Below are positions 35,177-47,449 of a DNA stretch of 64,000 nt, piece after piece. This DNA comes from Escherichia coli. Its GTDB lineage: Bacteria; Pseudomonadota; Gammaproteobacteria; Enterobacterales; Enterobacteriaceae. The first letter of the stretch is position 1. Each line of letters opens with the position of its first letter. Under the pieces are notes generated by a model. It made no database searches. It saw nothing but the letters and a program-made list of their open reading frames with translations, and had not been told where the DNA came from. Location of the stretch: assembly GCF_003334335.1 (NCBI RefSeq), contig NZ_QOWQ01000009.1, one strand, 5' to 3'. A program made the position numbers and the translations under genes.

Positions 35177-35256
35177 AACGCGTCATTTTTCAGCCGACCT
35201 TTAACACGTTCCTTGCCTCCCCGGGATTCGGCTGACCCAGACAGGAGGCTGAATAA

Positions 35257-35670
<414 letters not shown>

Positions 35671-36223: not shown

Positions 36224-36252
36224 TCGGTCACGGTCCATTAATACGACTTTGA

Positions 36253-36714
<462 letters not shown>

Positions 36715-36738
36715 TTCGTTATTCAACGAGACGTAAAA

Positions 36739-36768
36739 ACGCCGACCATTGGTCGGCGTTTTGCTTTT
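36739..36768. terminator. bidirectional rho-independent terminator (rplI on plus strand; accessory operon on minus strand)
   Basis: Hairpin ACGCCGACC-ATTG-GGTCGGCGT flanked by AAAAA upstream and TTTTGCTTTT downstream. Confidence 0.8.
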
Positions 36769-36825
36769 GTAGCGAGCACTTGCAGATATCGATAAGGGCC
36801 ACAATAAGCAGCCCTACGAAGATAA

Positions 36826-37797
36826 TTACTTAGCTGCCTGAATATCAGCCAGCATTGGGGCAAGGGCTGGGTTGTCCTTAGCGAAGTTTGCGTACATTGG
36901 CTGTACTTTCTCGATAAACGGAGCTTTATCTACCTGGTAGACTTTCACGCCCATTTTATCCAGTTTTGCAAATTCTTGTTTCTCTTCCTCGCTCCACAAG
37001 TCTTTCATGTAGCTCATTGATTCTTTAGCTGCTTTTAATATAACTGCCTGATTTTCCTGGCTAAGTTTATCAAACGCAGCATTGCTCATCAGAACCACAT
37101 CGGGAACCATAGTGTGTTCGTCAAGGCTGAAGGATTTTGCCACTTCACCGTGACGCATGGTAGTCAGCGCCATCACGCTGTTTTCTGCCATATCGACCAC
37201 ACCCTGCTGTAAGGCTGTATACAACTCGCCGTAATCCAGTGGCGTCGGGTTACCGCCCATGACTTTGATCATTTCAACTGCGCCAGGGCTTGGCTGGACA
37301 CGGACTTTCATGCCTTTCAGATCGTCTGGTTTCAGTACTGGTTTATTGCCATAGAAACTGCGGGCGCCTCCATCATAAAAAGTCAGCCCGAAATAACCTT
37401 TGCTTTTCGTTGAGTCGAGGATTTTTCTCCCGATATCGCCCTGCATGACCTGATAATAATGATCACGATCGCGGAACAAATAAGGCAGGCTAAATAATTT
37501 ATAGGAATTTTCAAATGCTTCCATTTCTGCCGCATTGGTTTTTACCAGGGGAATAGCGCCAGAACGAATCAGCTCCATTGTTTCTCGTTGAGTACCCAAT
37601 GTTCCATTTGGATAAATACGAATAGTAATATCACCGTTAGAGTACTCTTTGCTCTTTTTCGCAAAGAACTCCATCGCTTTATGAACAGGATGAGACTTAT
37701 CCTGATTATGACTCAGTTTTAATGTCACTGCCCAGGACTGGCTTGCGGATAACATAAGAACAGCACCGATAATGCCAGCGGATACTTTTATTTTCAT
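36826..37797 (-). CDS. TRAP transporter periplasmic solute-binding protein (DctP family)
   Basis: 323 aa, signal peptide MKIKVSAGIIGAVLMLSASQSWA; DctP-like fold with Arg in YDGGARSFYG at the position typical for carboxylate binding; last gene of operon; AT-rich. Confidence 0.8.
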   Translation of the reverse strand: MKIKVSAGIIGAVLMLSASQSWAVTLKLSHNQDKSHPVHKAMEFFAKKSKEYSNGDITIRIYPNGTLGTQRETMELIRSGAIPLVKTNAAEMEAFENSYKLFSLPYLFRDRDHYYQVMQGDIGRKILDSTKSKGYFGLTFYDGGARSFYGNKPVLKPDDLKGMKVRVQPSPGAVEMIKVMGGNPTPLDYGELYTALQQGVVDMAENSVMALTTMRHGEVAKSFSLDEHTMVPDVVLMSNAAFDKLSQENQAVILKAAKESMSYMKDLWSEEEKQEFAKLDKMGVKVYQVDKAPFIEKVQPMYANFAKDNPALAPMLADIQAAK

Positions 37798-37849
37798 AGA
37801 TGTTCCTTTTCTAATAAATATGGCGGCAGGTGCCGCCAGTGAATGCGCA

Positions 37850-39151
37850 TCAGTAGCCCAGTGCTCTTGGCAATGCCATACTGATTTGCGGAATATAGGT
37901 CACCATTGCCAGCACCAATACCATCACGGCATAGAATGGCAGCATAGGTTTGATAATTTTATTAATCGGTAATTTAGATACACTACAACCGACAAATAAC
38001 ACACTGCCTACAGGCGGAGTACAAATACCGATACACATGTTCAGTACCATGACAATACCAAAGTGAATCGGGTCCATGCCCAGTTCGGTGACAACCGGTA
38101 AAAATATCGGCGTAAAAATCAGTACCGCCGGTGTCATATCCATAAAAGTGCCGATAATCAACAGGATAATATTGATAATAAGCAGGATTATTATTGGGTT
38201 GTCAGAAATAGTGTTAAGCAAATCGAGAATCAGGAAGGGAACGTCAGCGTTTGACATTGCCCATGACATACCCATCGAAGAACCAATTAATAACAAGACA
38301 ATTGCAGTGGTAATAACGGATTCCAGAAATATTTTAGGTAAATCTTTAACTGAGATTTCACGATAAAGAACCAGTGCAAGGAAAAGGGTATAAATTACTG
38401 CAATTGCGGAGGCCTCTGTCGGGGTAAAAATACCACTTAATACACCCCCCATAATTAAAATAATCAGGAAAATACTGGGGATAGCCATCCATATCGCAAC
38501 GCCAGCCTGGCGTAAAGTCGGGCGTTCTGGCTTTGGATAACCGCGACGTACCGCGATAATACCGGCTATTACCATCAGTGCCAGACCCAGCAAAATTCCC
38601 GGAACATAACCCGCCAGGAACAGTGCGGCAATAGAAGTACCACCACTGACCAGTGAATAGACGATTAACGTATTACTTGGTGGAATAAGCAAACCCGTCG
38701 GGGCAGAGGCAACGTTAACCGCAGTACTGAATGCCGGGTCGTAACCCTCTTTAACCTGTTGCGGATGCATGACGCCGCCCATCGCAGCCGCCGAAGCCAC
38801 GGCTGAACCAGAAATTGCCCCGAACAGCATATTGGCGAGAATATTACAGTGGGCAAGTGAGCCTGGCAGACGACCGCCGAGAATACGGGCAAAGTTGATT
38901 AATCGTCGCGCTATTCCTCCATGGTTCATAATGTTGCCAGACAAGATAAAAAATGGGATTGCCAACAACGTAAAACTATCTAACCCGGAGGCTAACTTTT
39001 GGGAAACCACACTCAATGCTGAGTTGAAATCGAGTTGTGTGGAAATTGATGCCAGTGTCGATAAACCAATGGCATAAACAATAGGTACACCTAATGCCAA
39101 CATAAAAAAGAAGGCACCAAATAACACAATAATCGGTAACCAGTAATCCAT
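37850..39151 (-). CDS. TRAP transporter large permease (DctM family)
   Basis: 433 aa polytopic membrane protein, typical DctM N-terminus MDYWLPIIVLFGAFFFMLALGVPIVYAIGLSTLA; GGAG SD before ATG; sampled lines about 30% G+C. Confidence 0.85.
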   Translation of the reverse strand: MDYWLPIIVLFGAFFFMLALGVPIVYAIGLSTLASISTQLDFNSALSVVSQKLASGLDSFTLLAIPFFILSGNIMNHGGIARRLINFARILGGRLPGSLAHCNILANMLFGAISGSAVASAAAMGGVMHPQQVKEGYDPAFSTAVNVASAPTGLLIPPSNTLIVYSLVSGGTSIAALFLAGYVPGILLGLALMVIAGIIAVRRGYPKPERPTLRQAGVAIWMAIPSIFLIILIMGGVLSGIFTPTEASAIAVIYTLFLALVLYREISVKDLPKIFLESVITTAIVLLLIGSSMGMSWAMSNADVPFLILDLLNTISDNPIIILLIINIILLIIGTFMDMTPAVLIFTPIFLPVVTELGMDPIHFGIVMVLNMCIGICTPPVGSVLFVGCSVSKLPINKIIKPMLPFYAVMVLVLAMVTYIPQISMALPRALGY

Positions 39152-39193
39152 AATTTCTCCATTCCTACTATGGTTGGTTGTTGTTTGTTATCT

Positions 39194-39694
39194 TTAGAGT
39201 GGTTGTTTAAGTTCGGTTAAAACCATATCTATGGTGTATATAATAATAAGTACACCACTAATCGGGATGCTCATATAGATATATCCCATTTGCCAGCCTA
39301 AAGCGGGCGAGGTCTGACCTGAATCGAATGTATCCATCGTTAATAGCCCACCACCATATACCATAATGATGGTTGCGAAGATAATAACGATAATCTGAAT
39401 ACACAAAAATAAATGACGTCGGGCTTTTCCTTTCAGCATCATAGGTAGCAGGTCAATCGCCAGATGCCGGTTTTGCCCTGCGGTGTATGCCCCACCAAAA
39501 AGTCCAAGACAAATAAAGAGCAAACGGCTGAGTTCATCTGTAAAAATACTGGGACTAGTAAATATAAATCGTGCAGCCACCTGCCACGTCACACATGCCA
39601 CGATGATCGCCAAAATGGTAATGTTCAATGCTGCAAGCAGAGCATTAATAGATCTAATTATATTTCGCATAGTGATTAACCTTTGCAATATCAT
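39194..39694 (-). CDS. TRAP transporter small permease (DctQ family)
   Basis: 166 aa, four hydrophobic segments, size and position typical of DctQ; start ATG overlaps stop of upstream flavoprotein gene (ATGA). Confidence 0.7.
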   Translation of the reverse strand: MILQRLITMRNIIRSINALLAALNITILAIIVACVTWQVAARFIFTSPSIFTDELSRLLFICLGLFGGAYTAGQNRHLAIDLLPMMLKGKARRHLFLCIQIIVIIFATIIMVYGGGLLTMDTFDSGQTSPALGWQMGYIYMSIPISGVLIIIYTIDMVLTELKQPL

Positions 39695-41772
39695 TCATCC
39701 TGTGGCTGGTAAATTGTCCCATTAAGAAAACCAGGCCAGTTTTTTTCAAACCAAATACCTCGGATAATAGGAAACTCACGAACAGGTGTTTCTCTGACGT
39801 GAAAGATACCGTTGCAATAATGAATAAGTAGTTTATCTTTTTTATCCTCAGTACGCTCTGAACGAAAGCGCCAGGCATCACAAAAACCATTTCGTGTTTG
39901 CGGAATAGAATTTCCATCCCTGTCGAGAATAATACGTGCTCCCCGACTACCACCACCTGCGTCAATATAATGCGTTAATTGCGTTAATACGGCGGCAGAA
40001 GTCAGTGCCATATGCCGCCACATAAACAGCTCGGCAACTTCACCCACATGTTTGATAGCCAATCCATGCCGTTGGACAAATTCGCTCAATAGCAGGGCAT
40101 CGCGAGTGGCGCGTCGGACTTTATCGGCATGGCAAATAAATCCCGCATGGTCAGACATTCGTGCCTGAATTTTTTCTCTCACAACCGACAACGGCATCCC
40201 GGTCCCGTTATCGTGCGCCTGAGTAATGATCTCTCTTATAGAAGCCAGTGTAGGAGCTACCAGCTGTGCTATATCTCCATCAATATTCCGCTTTTGCGTG
40301 CAACCAATAAAACGTGCCAGACGAACAGCAAAAACCTGCCCGGCATTCAATGCTGCACCACCAGGGCGAGTGACGCCGTGTGTGCCAGCAACTTCCCCCA
40401 CGGCGAAACAGCCGGGCAGGGAGGTTTGTCCCCAGATATCCACTTCAATGCCGCCATTCATATGCTGATTATTCATGGCAAACTGCAAAGGCTGTGTGGT
40501 GAGATCGTAACCGTGCATCTTATACAGCGAGATAGACAGCGGATTCATTCGTTGCAGCCGTTCGATGGGCGATGGTGCCAGAGCGTCGTTATTTTCCAGA
40601 TACGCGCGAACGTCGTCGTCCAGTCGATCTAATGAGAACGGCAGGTCACCCGGCACCGCTTCAGGATTGCGATTGAAATCCATAAATACCTGACGCCCTG
40701 ATTGCTGCTCTTGCGCTACTGCCATATCTAACAAGCTGGAGCCAAAATCCATCACCCGAGTGGCGTGGAACGGCCACTGATAGCCTTTACGGAAAATGTT
40801 TGAAGCCAGCTCCTGGGTGGTGCGATAGTAATCCGCGAGGAAGTTATACTCGTTACCCTCAGCATCCACGGAATAGATATACGGGATCACCTGTACATAG
40901 GTGCCGGATAAATTCCACGGAAACGTGCTACGCGGCGTGCCTATACCAAACTGGCTTTCGGTCAGATTGGTTAGCGTCAGGCCTTCCTCCAGCGCCAGCC
41001 CCAGCGAGCCAAAACATTTGTGTGGGTACACACTGTCGCGATAAAGCTCGCCAGGCCCTCCTGTTGCCAGTACCACATTGGGCGCAGTCACAATTGCCAG
41101 CCCCCAAGGGTTATGGGCGCGATGACCGGTCGCGAGGATTGCCCCCGCAACACGGTCTTCGCCGTTTTCGTCACGCTGATGCAGCAGTTTAATCACTGTT
41201 GCACTGGTCAACACTGGAATGGCGAGGCGCTGTACTTCTTCCAACAGCACTTTCACCATTAACCTTGAGGTACGCGGCCCACACGAGGTTGCACGCCCGG
41301 CTTCGTCATGGTCGGTTTGATAACGAAGAATCGCGCCATAGCGATCTTCCGGTAATTCCAGACCAAGATATTGCAACCCGCCAAGAGTGTGCAGAGAACC
41401 TACCGCTTCGACATAAGCGGTGTCGTGATCCATCGCCCCACCGCTCGCCAGTGCCTCTGCCAGTTTGGTGAAGTTGTCGCCGTTGCCCGCGGTAGCGGCG
41501 GTAAACAGTGTCTGTTTATCGGAACCAGAACATGCCGACGTCCCCATATATAACCCGGCGGTGGCGATCAGCACATTTTGCTGGCGGCGTTTAAGTTCCA
41601 CAGCTGCACGCAGCCCGGCTGCACCACTGCCGACTACCAGGGCATCTGTTTGCCAGAGTGGGTAATCAACACCGTCTACCGTGACAACCCATGCGGGCTC
41701 TGCCTGTGCAAAACCCTTTGGGAAAGTAACGTGCGTCAGCGCATCAAGGATGGTGTCATCAAGCTGACTCAT
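39691..41772 (-). CDS. FAD-dependent oxidoreductase, fumarate reductase/succinate dehydrogenase flavoprotein-like (693 aa)
   Basis: N-terminal dinucleotide-binding motif ALVVGSGAAGLRAAVEL; C-terminal FAD motif GCFAVGEVAGTHGVTRPGGAALNAGQVFAVRLARFI; no RSHT-type covalent-FAD His motif seen; ATGA overlaps on both sides. Confidence 0.75.
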   Translation of the reverse strand: MSQLDDTILDALTHVTFPKGFAQAEPAWVVTVDGVDYPLWQTDALVVGSGAAGLRAAVELKRRQQNVLIATAGLYMGTSACSGSDKQTLFTAATAGNGDNFTKLAEALASGGAMDHDTAYVEAVGSLHTLGGLQYLGLELPEDRYGAILRYQTDHDEAGRATSCGPRTSRLMVKVLLEEVQRLAIPVLTSATVIKLLHQRDENGEDRVAGAILATGHRAHNPWGLAIVTAPNVVLATGGPGELYRDSVYPHKCFGSLGLALEEGLTLTNLTESQFGIGTPRSTFPWNLSGTYVQVIPYIYSVDAEGNEYNFLADYYRTTQELASNIFRKGYQWPFHATRVMDFGSSLLDMAVAQEQQSGRQVFMDFNRNPEAVPGDLPFSLDRLDDDVRAYLENNDALAPSPIERLQRMNPLSISLYKMHGYDLTTQPLQFAMNNQHMNGGIEVDIWGQTSLPGCFAVGEVAGTHGVTRPGGAALNAGQVFAVRLARFIGCTQKRNIDGDIAQLVAPTLASIREIITQAHDNGTGMPLSVVREKIQARMSDHAGFICHADKVRRATRDALLLSEFVQRHGLAIKHVGEVAELFMWRHMALTSAAVLTQLTHYIDAGGGSRGARIILDRDGNSIPQTRNGFCDAWRFRSERTEDKKDKLLIHYCNGIFHVRETPVREFPIIRGIWFEKNWPGFLNGTIYQPQDE

Positions 41773-43310
41773 GCATCCTCCATCGGCGTAAACAGGCTAC
41801 TTTCCATCAGGCGTGGGTGCTTGATAATTGGACGGAAAGCCATATACGGCAGAATGTCGCGCTCAATCTCCACACCCGGCGCGATTTCAATTAATTCAAC
41901 GCCTTCTGCCGTTAACTGGAATACTGCGCGTTCAGTGATATACAACACTTCCTGACCACTTTGCTGTGCGTAGGCGGCGCTAAAAGTGATTTTTTCCACC
42001 TTGGTAACCAGTTTAGGGATTTGACCTGACTGGGCGATATGCAAGCCATCTGGTGTTATATCGATCTTGCTGCCTTTAGCGTCGAACGTGCCGCAGAACA
42101 CCACTTTACGGGCATTTTGCGCAATTTCGAGAAATCCGCCGGGGCCAATCAGATTGCCATTGAGATGGGAGACGTTGACGTTACCGTACTGATCCATCTC
42201 TCCCATGCCGAGGAAGGTGATATCGATCCCTCCGCCACTGTAGAACTCAAATTGATCGAGTGATGGAATAATGGCATCGGCGTTGCGGGCGCAGCCGAAA
42301 AACGCATCATCCAGCATCATGCCGTTATGTACGCCTTGCTCGACGCTCAGCCATAAACTTTGGTAAGGAACGCCTTCGCGCAGCGCTACTCCTGGAATGC
42401 CGCCGGGAATACCAAAGCCAAAGTTGGTTGAAGCGCCAGCTACCAGTTCGCGTGCTGCCCGACGGGCAATCAGGCGACGTACCGGATGACTAACCAGTTC
42501 AATAGCGTCGTTAGAACTCAGACGGCGATGTTGGCCGCTGATGGTCAGGTCGTAACCGCCAAGATAGGTTTGTGGTTGTTCGCGGTGTTCAACGATGCCA
42601 TCAACCAGAATGCCCGGTAATTTGACCCGGCGTGGTTCAATCGCGCCAGCTTCCAGCACATCGCGTACCTGTACGAACACTTTGCCGCCGCTGTTGTGTG
42701 CTGCCAGCGCCATGGAATAGCTATCCATATCAATCGCTTCTTCTTCAAGGCTGACGTTGCCTCGAGGATCGGCATAAGTGCCACGCAAAATCGCGTAATC
42801 CACTTTGAAAGGGCGATAACGAAGTTTGGTTTCACCGTCGATTTCAATCAGTTCTACCAGCTCGTCGGTAGTGCATTCATTCGACTTACCGCCGCCATTG
42901 CGTGGATCAACAAACGATCCCAGCCCAACGTGGGTAAAAAGCCCCGGACGTCCGGCGCCGATCTCCCGTAGCAGTGCCTGAATCACGCCACCAGGAAAGC
43001 AGTAGGCTTCAATCGTGTTATTTTTTACCAGCGCCTGCATTTTGGGCGACCAGGTAAAGTGCCCGGCAATAATGCGTTTGAGCATCTCTGCGTGCGCAAA
43101 ACGATTAGTGCCTTTGCAGTCGCGATCGCCAATACCCAGCGAGTGGATTAGCGTCAGGTCGCGAGGGTGTCCGGTTTGCAGGAAACGCGCTTCAATAGCA
43201 GCCAGAATATGGTCGGCTTCCACCATACCGCCGCCGTTACCGCTAATAGCAATAGTCGCACCGTCCTGAATTTGCGCCGCCAGTGCCTCGGCGGTTGTTA
43301 TCTTACGCAT
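41769..43310 (-). CDS. family-I CoA-transferase, fused alpha/beta subunits (YdiF / propionate-CoA-transferase-like)
   Basis: 513 aa; GNGGG-containing N-terminus (ATIAISGNGGGMVEADHILAAI) and overall layout of fused 3-oxoacid/acetate CoA-transferases; family call from memory of fold. Confidence 0.7.
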   Translation of the reverse strand: MRKITTAEALAAQIQDGATIAISGNGGGMVEADHILAAIEARFLQTGHPRDLTLIHSLGIGDRDCKGTNRFAHAEMLKRIIAGHFTWSPKMQALVKNNTIEAYCFPGGVIQALLREIGAGRPGLFTHVGLGSFVDPRNGGGKSNECTTDELVELIEIDGETKLRYRPFKVDYAILRGTYADPRGNVSLEEEAIDMDSYSMALAAHNSGGKVFVQVRDVLEAGAIEPRRVKLPGILVDGIVEHREQPQTYLGGYDLTISGQHRRLSSNDAIELVSHPVRRLIARRAARELVAGASTNFGFGIPGGIPGVALREGVPYQSLWLSVEQGVHNGMMLDDAFFGCARNADAIIPSLDQFEFYSGGGIDITFLGMGEMDQYGNVNVSHLNGNLIGPGGFLEIAQNARKVVFCGTFDAKGSKIDITPDGLHIAQSGQIPKLVTKVEKITFSAAYAQQSGQEVLYITERAVFQLTAEGVELIEIAPGVEIERDILPYMAFRPIIKHPRLMESSLFTPMEDA

Positions 43311-43319
43311 ACAATTTCC

Positions 43320-44102
43320 TTATTGATTATGGAAGCTCACGCTACTTTTTTCGGCAAAGGCGCGCGTCGCCTGCTGGCAATCCTGAGTGGCAGACATTAA
43401 TCCGGCCAGTAGCTGGTGCGGGTAATCGGCATGTTTATTTTCCAGTGCCAGAATCAGTTGCTTAATATGCGCCAGTGCCACCGGGCCGCATTTTTCCAGC
43501 TGCGCTAACTGGTTCGCCATCCAGCTTTCCACCTGTTCTTTTTCTACCACTTCATCAATTAAATTCGCCGCCTGGGCTTCCTGCGCCGTCAGGCGTTTAC
43601 CCAGCATCAGCATCTGGCGACCGACCACCGGACCAACCTGATTAAGCACACGTTCAATGCCCATCCAGCCAGGCACCATGCCGAGCATCACTTCCGGGTT
43701 AGAGAATTTCGCGCCGGGGCGGGCAATACGAATATCGCAGCACAAGGCCAGTTCAATACCACCGCCGATGGTATGACCGTTGAGATTCGCAACGGTTAAT
43801 TGGGGTAAGTTTCGCAGGCGATTAAAAACGTCATTACCGCGTTTAATCCATTTTCTGCCCATATCTAATGGCGAATAGGCCGACCACGATTTAATATCGC
43901 CGCCCGCACAAAAGAATTTATCGCCGGTTGCCGTTAATTCGACTAATCGTAATGTGGTGTCGTTTTCAATTTCATTTAAATAATGGTCGAGAGATTCGAT
44001 CATCTCTTCGTTAATAGCATGACATTTATCTTCACGGTTCAATGTCAGGCGGCAGGAAGCCGCCGCTCTGCTGAACAGAACGGGTTGGTCACTCATGATC
44101 AT
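43320..44102 (-). CDS. enoyl-CoA hydratase/isomerase (crotonase fold)
   Basis: 260 aa; oxyanion-hole motif FCAGGDIK, catalytic Glu motifs GGGIELALCCDIRIA and FSNPEVMLGMVPGWMG. Confidence 0.8.
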   Translation of the reverse strand: MIMSDQPVLFSRAAASCRLTLNREDKCHAINEEMIESLDHYLNEIENDTTLRLVELTATGDKFFCAGGDIKSWSAYSPLDMGRKWIKRGNDVFNRLRNLPQLTVANLNGHTIGGGIELALCCDIRIARPGAKFSNPEVMLGMVPGWMGIERVLNQVGPVVGRQMLMLGKRLTAQEAQAANLIDEVVEKEQVESWMANQLAQLEKCGPVALAHIKQLILALENKHADYPHQLLAGLMSATQDCQQATRAFAEKSSVSFHNQ

Positions 44103-44105
44103 TCC

Positions 44106-44948
44106 TTAACAATAATGCGCGATGCGATCGACGCTAATATCCAGCGTGCTGTTAATATCTTTTTGCCACCAGTACGGCGAGAATATTTCCAGTTCAATAG
44201 CGCCATTAAATCCGGCGTTTTCAACCAGCCGACGAATTGACGGAATATTGATGACGCCATCTCCCGGCATACCACGGTCATTGACCAGATCAGTGGTCGG
44301 CACTAACCAGTCGGAAACATGAAACGCGAGGATGCGTTTTCCGGCACGCAGGATCTGACTGGCGAGATCCGGATCCCACCAGACGTGATAAACATCCACC
44401 GCCACGCCGAGGCCAAACTCACCATCGGGATCGAGTTCATCACACCAGTCCAGCGCCTGGCGTAACGTGCACAGGCAAGAGCGATCGGCAGCTGTCATCG
44501 GGTGCAGTGGCTCCAGCGCAATTGGCACGCCGACATCTTTCGAATGTGGCAGCAACTGGCGAATCCCTTGTTTCACTTGTTCTCGCGCTTCATATAGATC
44601 TTTAGTGCCCGTTGGCAGACCGCCAACCACCTGCATATAACAGGCGGCGTTAAGCACCGCTGCGTCGTCCAGCGCCCGGCGGTTATCATCAATCGCCAGT
44701 TTGCGTTCCGCCAGTGTCGGCGCGGTGTAGTAAGTGCTACGGCACAAACCGGAAACGCTCATGTTACTGGCGGCAAGCTGGTGGGCGATTTGCTGGAGAT
44801 CTTCACCTTGCAACTCCCTGCGCCAGGGAGCAATCGCGCCAATACCACGCGCGGCGCAGGCATCAATAATGGCGGGTAGCGGCGTTTTATAGCCCAGTGT
44901 TGCGGTATTGATACTGAATAAATCCGGGCGTTGTAACAGATCTCTCAT
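44106..44948 (-). CDS. sugar-phosphate isomerase/epimerase, xylose-isomerase-like TIM barrel
   Basis: 280 aa; conserved metal-ligand pattern of the family (IALEPLHP, DVYHVWWD, AIELEIF); the same fold as UlaE in this window but clearly a different sequence. Confidence 0.7.
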   Translation of the reverse strand: MRDLLQRPDLFSINTATLGYKTPLPAIIDACAARGIGAIAPWRRELQGEDLQQIAHQLAASNMSVSGLCRSTYYTAPTLAERKLAIDDNRRALDDAAVLNAACYMQVVGGLPTGTKDLYEAREQVKQGIRQLLPHSKDVGVPIALEPLHPMTAADRSCLCTLRQALDWCDELDPDGEFGLGVAVDVYHVWWDPDLASQILRAGKRILAFHVSDWLVPTTDLVNDRGMPGDGVINIPSIRRLVENAGFNGAIELEIFSPYWWQKDINSTLDISVDRIAHYC

Positions 44949-44957
44949 GATTCAGCC

Positions 44958-45749
44958 TCAGAAGCGCGGCATACTTAAGCCGCCGTCGATGGCGACCGCC
45001 TGACCACAGGTGTAAATCAGTTTACCTTCCGCCATCGCGCGGACAGTGGAAGCAATATCAGCCGGATAACCCCAACGTCCCCACGGCACCAGACCTTTGG
45101 CAATCAGTTCGTCGTAATAAGCCGTTGCCGGAATAGTCATATCAGTTTTGATGAGACCTGGGCGCACTTCATAAACGCCAATTTGTTCATTACAAAGGCG
45201 AGCTGCAAATAGACGAGCAGCGGCAGAAACGGCGGTTTTGGCAATGGTGTATTCGCCGCGATTCATCGCCAGCATGATGGCGTTGATGGAACTGACGAAA
45301 ATAATCGAGCGGTGCGGCAGTTCCGCTTCCGGTTTCGGCTGTGCCAGTAAACGCTTACTGAATGCCTGAGCAAGGAAGAACGGCGCGCGGGTGTTAATGG
45401 CAATGTTTTGATCGAAGCTGTCTGGTTCGAGGTCGAGGAGGTCACCGCGTTTTTTCACTGAAATGCCTGCGTTGTTGAGCAGGCAGTCCAGACGTCCCCA
45501 CAGGTTTTGCGCCGCGTCGAGCATCTCTTCATGCAAGGAGAGATCGCCGACATCGGCAGGGAAGCAAATCACTTCCACGCCTTCAGCTATACATTCTTGT
45601 TGTGTGATATGCAGTTTTTCTACGCTGTCGGCATCGGGAAGATCGTTAATCAGCAGGTTAAATCCGCCACGAGCAAGCTCCAGCGCACAGCCCTTTCCAA
45701 TACCACGAGCGGCTCCGGTAATCACGGCAACAGGACGAGTGGATTTCAT
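44958..45749 (-). CDS. short-chain dehydrogenase/reductase (SDR), first gene of accessory operon
   Basis: TGAARGIGKG cofactor motif, NNAG, catalytic YTIAK; ORF track begins at a TTG (45791); first ATG at 45749 gives the usual spacing before the Gly motif. Confidence 0.85.
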   Translation of the reverse strand: MKSTRPVAVITGAARGIGKGCALELARGGFNLLINDLPDADSVEKLHITQQECIAEGVEVICFPADVGDLSLHEEMLDAAQNLWGRLDCLLNNAGISVKKRGDLLDLEPDSFDQNIAINTRAPFFLAQAFSKRLLAQPKPEAELPHRSIIFVSSINAIMLAMNRGEYTIAKTAVSAAARLFAARLCNEQIGVYEVRPGLIKTDMTIPATAYYDELIAKGLVPWGRWGYPADIASTVRAMAEGKLIYTCGQAVAIDGGLSMPRF

Positions 45750-45795
45750 ACAATAGCTCTCTTTTTTTGAATATTGTTTTCTAAGTGACAATTAG

Positions 45796-45839
45796 CTTGC
45801 GACGTGCCGCAAGAAAGATCAACCATCTGGTTGGTTGAT
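45796..45839. promoter_or_regulatory. two adjacent palindromes in the divergent control region between the accessory operon and its TetR gene (candidate operators)
   Basis: CTTGCG-ACGTGC-CGCAAG (45796-45813) and ATCAACCA-TCTGGT-TGGTTGAT (45818-45839, with nested AACCA-TC-TGGTT); read directly. Confidence 0.5.
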
Positions 45840-45961
45840 ATGCGATAGTGATCACAGGACATTTGATAACTTGATGAAAGTACAAGTTTTTATCCTTTTT
45901 ACTGGAGCTTCTAATTAATCGGGTTAAGATAGTTATCTTGAAGAGGTCGTGGGGAAGCGTT

Positions 45962-46609
45962 ATGTATCTTGATACCAGCAACGTACAGAGCCTGAAGGAA
46001 AAGCTGCTGTTATGCGCGGTTAATGAATTTGCCGAATATGGTTATGAAGGGGCCAGGGTCGATAATATTGTTAAGGCTGCGGGGTGTAGTAAACAGACGG
46101 TTTATCATCACTTTGGTAATAAAGAAAATTTATTTATTGAAGTACTGGAATATACCTGGAACGATATTCGACAAAAAGAAAAGGCCCTTGATTTCTCAGA
46201 TCTTCCGCCACAAAAAGCCATTGAGAAAATTATTGATTTTACATGGGATTATTATATTGCTAATCCCTGGTTTTTAAAAATTGTGCATAGTGAAAATCAA
46301 AGTAAAGGTGTGCATTATGCAAAATCACAGCGTCTCTTAGAAATTAACCATGCGCACTTGCAGTTAATGGAATCCTTATTGGATGAAGGGAAGAAACACA
46401 ATATTTTTAAGCCAGATATCGACCCATTGCAGGTGAATATTAATATTGCTGCGCTTGGCGGATATTATTTGATCAACCAGCATACGCTTGGCCTGGTTTA
46501 TCATATCAGTATGGTTTCCCCCCAGGCACTGGAAGCCAGACGTAAGGTCATCAAAGAGACAATCCTTAGCTGGCTTTTGGTTGACCCTTCATCTACCGCG
46601 CACGAATAA
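45962..46609 (+). CDS. TetR-family transcriptional regulator
   Basis: N-terminal [47 protein letters not shown]; ORF track start 45938 is TTG, first ATG at 45962; 3' end overlaps ytfB 3' end by 17 nt. Confidence 0.8.
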
Positions 46610-47231
46610 AACTGCCATCCGGCTGGCGGGTGAACAGGACCTGTTGATTATTCCCCGTATCAATGGTTAAGCCCGTCACCACGCCGCTGGCGTTCTGGCG
46701 GATTTTCACCATTTGCCCGTTTTGCAAATTACTCAGCGGCTTACCCGCGCCTTCTACCTGCGCCATTGCATAGACATCGGTAGCGGGCAGTCCGTGGTCG
46801 CGGAACAGCTGCGCCATCGTTTTACCGGGTTCGACACGGTAAGAGCGCCATTGATTATCAATTCCGCTATCTGGCTGGAATGGTTGTGTTTGGGTAGTTT
46901 GCGGCTGTTCTTCTGGCTGGCCTTCCTGTATAGGTTCTGGAGCGACCGGAGCCACCTGATCAGGATCATTTTGTGGTGTGACTAATTGCGCCCGCAGCTG
47001 TTCTTCTGTCGGCGGTTGTGATTGCGACTGAATATCTAACTGCGCTTCACGCGTCACCACCGGCGCGTTGGGCGTATCATCAGATGGAAGCAGAAATCCG
47101 ACCACCAATATAATGGCGGCAATAATGATCCCCCGACGATGCATCGGCGGCAGCGGGTCCATGAAGCGAAAATTGTCCGGCGCGTGCCAGACTTTCTCCA
47201 GGGTTGGTTTTAGTTCAAAGCGCCCGGGCAT
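46593..47231 (-). CDS. ytfB: cell-division protein YtfB (OapA/LysM-like)
   Basis: ORF 46593..47267; start set to ATG 47231 (212 aa, [46 protein letters not shown]). Confidence 0.88.
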
Positions 47232-47449
47232 GGTTTCCTCCTGCTCCGCGTCTTGTTCCTCAATCATAGCCTATGAATAAGCTAACGCTATGATGTCCGT
47301 GGTAAACCCGCCTTTATTATATTCATACGGGATATTGCTATTGTTTCTTTTTCCCCGGGATTTGTCATCATTCCTGCGACAAAGTTTTACCCAAAGAAGT
47401 GTGGCTGATATGCTGCCCGCTACTTTTATACCCTAAGAAAGGAAATACG

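Follow-up and report, generated by a model that had tools for sequence, protein, structure and literature searches.

The question raised by the operon between rplI and ytfB of Escherichia coli is which compound its transporter imports and what its five enzymes do with it. The operon was analyzed in a window of 64,000 nt of the E. coli chromosome (assembly GCF_003334335.1, contig NZ_QOWQ01000009.1), and all coordinates given without a locus label refer to this window. It encodes a classical short-chain dehydrogenase/reductase (SDR), a xylose-isomerase-like triosephosphate isomerase (TIM) barrel protein, a crotonase, a fused family-I CoA-transferase, a flavoprotein resembling the fumarate reductase subunit FrdA, and a tripartite ATP-independent periplasmic (TRAP) transporter, with a divergent gene for a TetR regulator. 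Our leading, though tentative, reading is that these genes form a catabolic operon, repressed by TetR and probably activated by the cAMP receptor protein (CRP), through which an imported polyhydroxylated carboxylate is degraded; this substrate would most likely be a hexuronate/aldonate-type C6 sugar acid. The enzymes belong to known superfamilies, but their coupling is unprecedented, and two of the five enzyme families (the flavoprotein and the SMc04130-type TIM barrel) have no characterized member. The features of the locus are as follows.

36265-36714, plus strand: rplI, left flank, convergent with dctP
36736-36762, between the convergent rplI and dctP: G+C-rich hairpin with a 12-pair stem, an A run and a T run on its flanks
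36826-37797, minus strand: DctP, TRAP solute-binding protein (SBP), 323 aa, WP_000695892.1 (TIGR00787, 2.9e-73)
37850-39151, minus strand: DctM, large TRAP permease, 433 aa (TIGR00786, 2e-137, above cut-off)
39194-39694, minus strand: DctQ, small TRAP permease, 166 aa (158 aa with the start at 39670 according to PGAP; the long start gives the ATGA overlap)
39691-41772, minus strand: FrdA-like flavoprotein, 693 aa (PF00890)
41769-43310, minus strand: fused family-I CoA-transferase, 513 aa (PDB 2ahu, YdiF, 1.2e-113)
43320-44102, minus strand: enoyl-CoA hydratase/dehydratase of the crotonase superfamily, 260 aa (best solved relative 5zai, 3.6e-40)
44106-44948, minus strand: xylose-isomerase-like TIM barrel, 280 aa (PF01261)
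44958-45749, minus strand: classical SDR, 263 aa, PRK12745 family (PGAP start ATG at 45749; the reading frame extends to a TTG at 45791)
45818-45839, divergent promoter region: candidate TetR operator, perfect palindrome ATCAACCA-N6-TGGTTGAT
45841-45856, adjoining the palindrome: tentative CRP-like site TGCGA-N6-TCACA
45962-46609, plus strand: TetR/AcrR regulator, 215 aa, divergent (its orthologues have PF00440 and PF17938)
46593-47267, minus strand: ytfB, right flank

The original prediction described eight tightly packed minus-strand genes with a divergent TetR gene, and this layout holds throughout: in the window sequence the enzyme genes are separated by 3-9 nt, ATGA stop/start overlaps are found at 41769-41772 and 39691-39694, and spaces of 42 and 52 nt separate the genes of the TRAP transporter. 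The gene families named there were recovered with matches far beyond chance (TIGR00786, 2e-137; YdiF, 1e-113; PRK12745, 1.5e-125), and these families support the general chemistry it outlined, comprising import of a carboxylate, CoA activation, hydration or dehydration, hydroxyl/keto redox and C=C redox. As it also stated, the operon contains no thiolase, lyase or acyl-CoA dehydrogenase gene and matches no characterized route. The only NCBIfam equivalog obtained is the uninformative PRK12745, and none of the solved close homologues has a function. A substrate is likewise not assigned by any curated family or solved structure that was found, nor by any paper, in a literature coverage that extended to SMc04130, yjfZ and ytfA, uronyl-, shikimoyl- and quinoyl-CoA and the catabolism of 4-O-methylglucuronate, but that omits most subscription journals and may have missed a paper. 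The decay that would have spoken against a working operon finds no support in the window, where all nine open reading frames (ORFs) are intact and the catalytic residues are present. Many complete E. coli genomes match the region at 100% identity over 10,001 nt. A single annotated record (H4) was inspected, and there PGAP calls all nine genes intact, with generic names only.

Transporters, regulation and the substrate class

DctP, DctQ and DctM are encoded together, with the TIGR00787 and TIGR00786 matches above their cut-offs and a weak match for DctQ, whose orthologues have PF04290; the N-terminus of DctP resembles a signal peptide. The best solved relatives of the SBP are 4ovr, 4x8r, 4n8y, 4n15, 4n91 and 4mhf (EFI structures; E 1e-60 to 1e-71). 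Glucuronate is held in 4X8R, 4N91 and 4MHF, and galacturonate in 4N8Y (PMC11668362, PMC7660916). The carboxylate arginines R146 and R166 are conserved, together with N206. At a constant numbering offset of four, N31, Q32 and D233 would correspond to the glucuronate contacts N35, Q36 and D237 of STM3169, and Q70 to E74. All of R146, R166, N206, N31, Q32 and D233 recur in the SBPs of such operons (39-75% identity), whereas unrelated neighboring TRAP SBPs do not retain them. Among the operon-linked SBPs, the one of the Rhodocyclaceae is 75% identical and the one of a gut contig 39%, the latter with Asn in place of Q70. As a lead, the exchange of Glu for Gln or Asn at this position could mean that the ligand group at this point is a hydrogen-bond acceptor and not a donor (ether or keto). 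When the N-terminal fragment of the SBP was compared, the best match was 4o8m, which we take to be an L-galactonate binder, and 4N91 was outside the top five.

In other bacteria and in other E. coli a transporter of the major facilitator superfamily (MFS) stands in place of the TRAP genes. It belongs to the D-galactonate/hexuronate (anion:cation symporter, ACS) subfamily, with scores on TIGR00893 of 314 bits for the E. coli and 302 bits for the Sodalis protein, and the Klebsiella and Salmonella MFS proteins fall into the same subfamily. The SBP relatives and the MFS subfamily are independent solutions that agree, and the substrate class is therefore predicted to be a hexuronate/aldonate-like carboxylate. 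Taken from both transporters and from the KdgK/Eda neighbors found elsewhere, a C6 sugar acid appears to be the best-supported class.

The regulator has a TetR_N helix-turn-helix (HTH) domain and a divergent arrangement, and the palindrome at 45818-45839, the only exact match in the window, lies in the shared promoter region. This palindrome is kept in the intergenic regions of the MFS-type E. coli, Klebsiella oxytoca, Salmonella and Sodalis loci (four genera), the surroundings of which have otherwise diverged, and it is a candidate for the TetR operator. The CRP-like motif TGCGA-N6-TCACA has one mismatch to TGTGA-N6-TCACA. In Klebsiella, Salmonella and Sodalis a motif nearer to the consensus, GTGATC-N4-TCACA, is similarly placed. 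A CRP site is tentatively proposed next to the palindrome on the grounds of its position and its retention across genera.

Enzymes and the predicted route

The flavoprotein has a PF00890 domain and the three-domain fold of the SdhA/FrdA/NadB superfamily. The closest solved folds to its AlphaFold2 (AF2) model (predicted local distance difference test, pLDDT, 86.5) are SdhA/FrdA (Foldseek E 2e-30, TM 0.62-0.67, about 0.65), at 15-18% identity. In the hhalign alignment with E. coli FrdA the covalent-FAD histidine H44 is replaced by G77, and the dicarboxylate site is incomplete: H355 and R390 are kept as H437 and R469, H232 becomes G276, and R287 falls into an alignment gap. No frdB/sdhB-like Fe-S subunit gene is present in the operon, no signal peptide or twin-arginine (TAT) motif was seen by eye, and the best NCBIfam equivalog reaches 126 bits (cut-off 718). 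A true fumarate reductase is ruled out because H44 and H232 are glycines, R287 is gapped and the Fe-S partner is absent, and judging from these features the protein is a cytoplasmic member of the superfamily with non-covalent FAD. A periplasmic respiratory reductase such as Fcc3 or UrdA was also rejected, as no signal or TAT motif is visible and a dedicated importer is present.

The family of this flavoprotein is large. In a library clustered at 50% identity, 422 clusters reach E<1e-30, and the GTDB species scan gave at least 597 confirmed loci. The family spans many phyla, with Succinatimonas hippei, Enterocloster bolteae, Victivallis, Halanaerobium, Treponema and an Asgard archaeon among its members. 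Every source name and AFDB50 neighbor is generic or unnamed, and fold searches of PDB and AFDB50 gave no functional lead. A comparison of 16 members (35-55% identity) shows that numerous aromatic and polar residues never vary, among them W286, N287, S289, Y292, Q294, K329, Y331 and W333. By their position they would lie in the region matching the FrdA capping domain, and this conservation fits a conserved, probably carbohydrate-like substrate. In one distant homologue (P0150, 1084 aa) an N-terminal NADH:flavin oxidoreductase domain of the old yellow enzyme (OYE) type is fused to the FAD_binding_2 domain, which hints, as a Rosetta-stone fusion, at the electron donor. FrdA-type enoate reductases associated with OYE are already known. 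The contigs around distant homologues in metagenomes are short and uninformative on context.

The CoA-transferase combines an alpha-like part (residues 4-244) and a beta-like part (278-483) in one chain, as expected for a fused family-I enzyme, and its orthologues have PF01144. E324, in the motif SVEQG, aligns with the TVETG glutamate of E. coli YdiF, presumably E333, which forms the enzyme-CoA thioester. A fatty-acid role, indicated by a match to the staphylococcal FadX model (2.8e-114), was rejected because this score is below the cut-off and the transporters are of the sugar-acid type. In the crotonase both canonical glutamates are kept (E117 in GGGIE and E137 in NPE; we take them as the equivalents of rat E144 and E164), which argues for a true hydratase or dehydratase and not an isomerase or hydrolase variant; its best solved relative is the 3-hydroxypropionyl-CoA dehydratase 5zai.

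The SDR scores 417.5 bits on NF009386 (PRK12745; cut-off 250) and shows the motifs TGAARGIG (11-18), D36 at the end of beta-2, NNAG (92-95) and Y167/K171. An Asp at the end of beta-2 usually marks the use of NAD(H). It is not a KduD, with 115 bits on TIGR01832 against a cut-off of 339. The TIM barrel (AF2 model pLDDT 92.4) is closest to SMc04130 of Sinorhizobium meliloti (3ju2/3qc0; 1e-84, 49-50% identity) and to 7vpf of Paenibacillus (1e-60), and all three structures were deposited only as "putative sugar isomerase". The two NCBIfam matches to characterized PF01261 subfamilies are far too low, namely 28.3 bits for IolO (cut-off 300) and 26.4 bits for hydroxypyruvate isomerase, Hyi (cut-off 353). 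The PDB fold search gave no functional lead for this protein; its remote matches include IolI, YcjR and 5hmq, presumably the 3-dehydroshikimate dehydratase QuiC1.

Away from the ytfB-rplI site the five-enzyme set recurs in Sodalis, Rhodocyclaceae and human-gut metagenome contigs, and in Rhodocyclaceae and Uliginosibacterium the order of the genes is kept as well. These loci and a related one (L097) are listed below with the crotonase given as ECH, the CoA-transferase as CoAT and the flavoprotein as FAD.

Rhodocyclaceae, Uliginosibacterium (L089, L090): TetR; MaoC-SDR-TIM-ECH-CoAT-FAD-DctQM, DctP
Sodalis ligni (L091): MFS version, with a flavodoxin gene next after the operon
Human-gut metagenome contigs (L098, L099): TIM-ECH-CoAT; TetR; SDR-FAD-SDR-DctPQM
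L097: CoAT, acyl-CoA dehydrogenase, SDR, DUF993, TIM

Starting from the TIM protein, the CoA-transferase is present in 5 of 5 informative contexts and the flavoprotein in 4 of 5. In L097 an acyl-CoA dehydrogenase occupies the place of the flavoprotein and is likely its non-orthologous replacement, which argues that the flavoprotein has an alpha,beta ene-redox role. The DUF993 (PF06187) gene of this locus (L097 7829-9004) lies between the SDR and TIM-barrel genes. In the 74 neighborhoods collected around the flavoprotein, an SDR adjoins it in 29, the TIM protein in 11 and an OYE-family gene in 12. The SDR and TIM genes are accompanied by one for a Gfo/Idh/MocA (GFO) dehydrogenase in Pseudescherichia, Phytobacter, Mangrovibacter, Verrucomicrobia and Lentisphaeria. 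The alphaproteobacterial flavoprotein follows a levoglucosan-dehydrogenase-like GFO and stands before a KdgK-like kinase, the whole being preceded by a sugar ABC transporter and two GMC oxidoreductases. A Rhizobium operon joins the flavoprotein, a YdiF-like transferase, a crotonase, a KdgK-like kinase and an aldehyde dehydrogenase, and in Phycisphaerae the flavoprotein is found with an SDR, an Eda-like aldolase, a PfkB kinase and an oxidoreductase of the OYE/GltD type.

In the route that we propose, the acid would enter through the TRAP transporter or, in 1686 other E. coli as well as in Klebsiella, Salmonella and Sodalis, through the ACS-family MFS. The NAD-type SDR would oxidize a secondary hydroxyl to a ketone, and the metal-dependent TIM barrel would move or epimerize this ketone or eliminate water beside it, following the logic of YcjS/YcjR, IolG/IolE and KduD/KduI; these two steps are suggested by the folds and by the conserved SDR-TIM(-GFO)-flavoprotein module. 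The YdiF-like transferase would load CoA onto the carboxylate, with acetyl-CoA or the acyl-CoA product of the pathway itself as the probable donor, and the crotonase would remove (or add) water at the alpha,beta bond of the thioester. The flavoprotein would then carry out C=C/C-C redox at the alpha,beta position beside the carboxylate, most likely as a 2-enoate reductase whose substrate is the free acid left once CoA is handed on. Such an ene-redox role is argued for by the FrdA fold with the H355/R390 equivalents and by the exchange for an acyl-CoA dehydrogenase in L097. The reductive direction is favored because of the non-covalent FAD, the OYE fusion and neighbors, the flavodoxin gene of Sodalis and the many strict anaerobes among the members. 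The product would presumably be a keto-deoxy acid, used by core enzymes such as KdgK and Eda; KdgK/Eda-like genes share a cluster with flavoprotein homologues in other phyla. The module as a whole is best read as similar to beta-oxidation, with a new type of cytoplasmic FrdA-like flavoenzyme in place of the acyl-CoA dehydrogenase.

Several points weigh against this reading. Every catalytic step is assigned from superfamily membership, and the residue mapping to STM3169 uses a constant numbering offset in place of an alignment to that protein. The flavoprotein has no equivalents of H232 and R287 of FrdA, so its chemistry could differ, for instance as a NadB-like oxidation of an alpha-hydroxy or alpha-amino group, and the E. 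coli operon has no electron-donor partner, so that the reaction could run in either direction. A fully hydroxylated sugar acid yields ketones on dehydration and not a stable C=C bond, so the need for an ene-reductase can be explained only by a substrate with a deoxy position, an ether or a ring. CRP-like motifs in the window are not above chance (3 found against 1.7 expected). Finally, in Brenneria close homologues of the SDR and the TIM barrel (74% and 71% identity) stand with the flavoprotein and a PcaK-like aromatic-acid:H+ symporter, without the CoA enzymes, so a hydroaromatic acid fits as well.

A pathway for such an acid, with quinate, shikimate or 3-dehydroshikimate as the substrate, is the strongest rival, although we consider it unlikely. 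The SDR would then be a quinate/shikimate dehydrogenase, the TIM barrel a dehydratase of the dehydroquinate or dehydroshikimate type, and the FrdA-like protein would reduce the ring C1=C2 bond conjugated to the carboxylate, while the CoA-transferase and crotonase would dehydroxylate the thioester. Shikimate, a sugar-like alpha,beta-unsaturated carboxylate, is stable and has the shape of a pyranuronate; gut bacteria reportedly reduce it, and the scheme would match this as well as the route from shikimate to cyclohexanecarboxyl-CoA in Streptomyces. Besides the Brenneria cluster, the gene of YdiF, which among characterized proteins is the nearest to the CoA-transferase, adjoins ydiB (quinate/shikimate dehydrogenase) and aroD in K-12, and the literature contains a shikimoyl-CoA route (reference 64 of PMC13304725). 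The presence of 5hmq among the remote TIM fold matches is in line with this pathway, but that match is no better than those to sugar epimerases. The sugar ABC transporters and the KdgK- and Eda-like genes beside the flavoprotein homologues of Alphaproteobacteria and Phycisphaerae do not suit a carbocyclic acid, and the MFS proteins of E. coli and Sodalis score best on the sugar-acid model TIGR00893, whereas TIGR00883, which we take to be the ShiA family, is not among their matches. No aroD, aroQ, aroE or pca genes were seen at any of the loci, and the literature on shikimate, quinate and cyclohexanecarboxylate yielded no supporting paper.

The relation of the crotonase to a 3-hydroxypropionyl-CoA dehydratase raises another alternative, in which the operon would serve as an electron sink by reduction of short-chain 3-oxo or 3-hydroxy acids, for example by converting malonate semialdehyde or 3-hydroxypropionate to propionate, with 3-HP-CoA and acryloyl-CoA or acrylate as intermediates, or in a C4 analogue. 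The SDR would act as a 3-oxo reductase and the FrdA-like protein as an acrylate or enoate reductase, a role in keeping with the OYE-associated enzymes mentioned above. The transferase is of the YdiF/Pct type, and one locus (L014) joins the same genes with an AcrC-like acyl-CoA dehydrogenase, EtfAB and MaoC. Against this, the crotonase match is generic, the sugar-isomerase-like TIM barrel would have no obvious role, and the SBP signature and the ACS-type MFS favor a larger, polyhydroxylated acid, so that we regard the electron sink as improbable.

Within the sugar-acid reading, a more specific proposal can be made, which we consider possible but rather doubtful. The operon would provide a CoA-dependent, hitherto undescribed route for sugar acids that cannot be degraded in the usual way. 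Candidates are a substituted or non-reducing hexuronate (for example 4-O-methyl-glucuronate, derived from dietary xylan), an anhydro-uronate and L-iduronate. Conversion to the thioester would allow the crotonase to eliminate the beta substituent, and the FrdA-like protein, as a new class of cytoplasmic ene-reductase, would together with the TIM enzyme complete the conversion to a keto-deoxy acid.

Distribution and locus history

Prevalence was counted over 5426 complete E. coli genomes. The flavoprotein gene is present in 3126 of them (58%), with at least 80% of its length kept in 3123; the TRAP version of the locus is found in 1448 genomes and the MFS version in 1686, and yjfZ in 2539. In K. 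oxytoca and Salmonella enterica the TetR gene and the SDR-TIM-crotonase-transferase-flavoprotein set occupy the same ytfB-rplI site, whereas in Sodalis ligni the same set lies at another location. The MFS takes the place of the TRAP genes in these three and in E. coli strain 131. In the MFS-type locus of that strain an HTH gene and a frameshifted HipA-family toxin gene lie between rplI and the MFS gene (L094, 4495-7676), and in the Klebsiella and Salmonella loci (L095, L096) an EamA transporter gene is found at this position.

The K-12 locus reads rplI-yjfZ-ytfA(pseudogene)-ytfB. Its homology to the window ends at 36767, just past the hairpin, and restarts at 46207 inside the TetR gene, where the ytfA stretch (NC_000913.3 4427694-4428095) corresponds to window 46207-46609. 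Because the homology restarts inside the TetR gene, the ytfA pseudogene is, as read from this alignment, the 3' remnant of the TetR gene of the operon. A 102-bp remnant of the SDR gene (81% identity, window 45559-45660) adjoins yjfZ. The operon is likewise lost in O157 Sakai, where yjfZ and then IS609 (IS200/IS605 family) precede ytfB (L093 46842-48589) and no ytfA remnant is annotated. Since the operon is syntenic in K. oxytoca and Salmonella and K-12 keeps relics of the TetR and SDR genes, the yjfZ state of K-12 would be derived. The simplest reading is that the enzyme operon is ancestral in the Enterobacteriaceae and was lost in the K-12 and O157 lineages. A recent horizontal gain of the whole island is ruled out by the synteny of the locus across three genera.

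The transporter has a different history. The enzymes are 93-98% identical between the TRAP-type and MFS-type E. coli loci. A Rhodocyclaceae set (L089) has TRAP genes of 67-85% identity to those of the operon (DctM 85%), but its enzymes are only 40-62% identical to the E. coli ones. The G+C content is about 0.40-0.46 in the TRAP and TetR genes against 0.51-0.55 in the enzyme genes, with the step between 36800-39700 and 39700-45500. The simplest reading here is that in some E. coli a TRAP module replaced the MFS. The yjfZ/ytfA arrangement that the original prediction gave for K-12 is thus the one found, but its description of the operon as a strain-variable replacement island must be turned around, as K. 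oxytoca and Salmonella have the operon at the same site, the K-12 state is the derived one, and only the transporter looks exchanged. The word "accessory" also understates an operon of this prevalence. The comparison of gene neighborhoods that it proposed bore out co-occurrence of the gene set in E. coli, K. oxytoca, Salmonella, Sodalis, Rhodocyclaceae and gut contigs.

The operon is lost in K-12 and O157 Sakai, and in some other strains as well as in Shigella its genes are interrupted by insertion sequences (IS) or its ORFs are truncated or fused. This could suggest that the operon is a decaying, non-functional remnant on its way to loss. This is very improbable and can be excluded for the window, given its nine intact ORFs with their catalytic residues, the 3123 of 5426 genomes in which at least 80% of the flavoprotein gene is kept, the close identity of the enzymes between both E. 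coli variants, and the gene order and operator palindrome kept across genera. The interruptions themselves are of several kinds. IS5 or IS1 has inserted into genes for the flavoprotein, the MFS or the TRAP transporter in several E. coli strains that are operon-positive in other respects (H25, H31, H55, H60-H64), which indicates recurrent independent inactivation. TIM-barrel fragments of 207 aa or shorter with ~72% identity occur in E. coli and Shigella records (P0308-P0322, P0337, P0345), and in some E. coli records ORFs of 973-1078 aa fuse the flavoprotein and CoA-transferase domains (P0002, P0034, P0086); both suggest local decay or loss of the stop codon at the ATGA overlap in some lineages.

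At the left end of the operon the hairpin at 36736-36762 is likely a bidirectional terminator. An ORF of 188 aa with a TTG start (36238-36804, minus strand) runs antisense to rplI into this hairpin and is almost certainly spurious. An Rfam scan of the window gave no match inside the operon, and RNA elements were ruled out there. Outside it, an RpsF leader upstream of rpsF and the sRNAs ES239, STnc450 and ES036 were found (35193-35277, 55076-55198, 58550-58729). The window has two tandem tRNA-Gly(GCC) genes (2629-2816), compared with three (glyV, glyX, glyY) at the corresponding site of O157 Sakai.

No organism is better annotated than E. coli, yet the five-enzyme operon, carried by 3126 of its 5426 complete genomes and also by some Salmonella, gut anaerobes and the K. 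oxytoca group, has been assigned no substrate because K-12 and O157 lost it. The SMc04130-type TIM family has been solved three times and the FrdA-like family reaches many phyla, neither with a characterized member. If the substrate were named, thousands of genes would gain an annotation and a further nutrient or electron sink would be added to the niches that matter in gut colonization; a CoA-dependent sugar-acid chemistry for which no precedent was found could also be revealed. If the route for a blocked sugar acid is true, two protein families gain a function, and a nutrient niche has been overlooked that is open to 58% of E. coli and not to K-12. The system is directly testable, as a binding protein, a repressor with its operator and isogenic natural variants are available.

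Comparison with known systems

In respect to the hexuronate TRAP SBPs (STM3169, Apre_1383, Bpro_3107 and Bamb_6123), the operon SBP shares the carboxylate arginines and several polar contacts. It differs in the Gln or Asn at position 70, where the glucuronate binders have Glu, and in being coupled to CoA-dependent enzymes and not to UxaC/UxuAB. The arrangement of the TIM barrel resembles YcjR/YcjS/YcjQ, IolE/IolG, IolO, OtnI and KduI/KduD, where such a PF01261 barrel likewise stands beside NAD-dependent dehydrogenases (the SDR here; Gfo/Idh/MocA proteins in the sister clusters). The protein itself is far under the cut-offs of the IolO and hydroxypyruvate isomerase subfamilies, and its nearest structures, SMc04130 and 7vpf, have no assigned function.

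The flavoprotein shares with fumarate reductase, SdhA and NadB the fold and the H355/R390-type carboxylate pair, and the predicted non-covalent FAD is as in the soluble reductases and NadB. In contrast to SdhA, FrdA and their relatives, it has no Fe-S subunit, heme or FMN_bind domain, and it carries an extra C-terminal beta-rich region. Like the OYE-linked NADH:enoate reductases acting on fumarate, acrylate and cinnamate, its homologues are fused to, or adjoin, OYE-type modules.

With E. coli YdiF as a clear paralogue of its CoA-transferase, the operon can be compared with the whole ydi cluster (ydiN-ydiB-aroD-ydiF-ydiO-ydiQRST-fadK), for which, too, we know of no settled physiological role. 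Both join a transporter, a hydroxyl dehydrogenase, an enzyme of the dehydratase/isomerase type, a transferase and an alpha,beta-ene flavoenzyme. The ydi cluster uses for this purpose an acyl-CoA dehydrogenase with an electron-transfer flavoprotein (ETF), an AroE-type dehydrogenase and AroD, whereas the operon has the FrdA-like flavoprotein, the SDR, the TIM barrel and the crotonase.

The carnitine route of CaiB, CaiD and CaiA, with CaiT as the transporter, employs a family-III transferase (CaiB) and an acyl-CoA dehydrogenase that acts on the thioester (CaiA). The transferase of the operon belongs to family I, its flavoenzyme is FrdA-like with no acyl-CoA dehydrogenase fold among its products, and the Cai system lacks a TIM-barrel or SDR step. 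The operon is not a member of that system and the likeness is one of mechanism only: in both, a beta-hydroxy acid would be activated by a CoA-transferase and dehydrated by a crotonase, the enoyl product would be reduced by a flavoenzyme, and CoA would be passed to the following substrate molecule.

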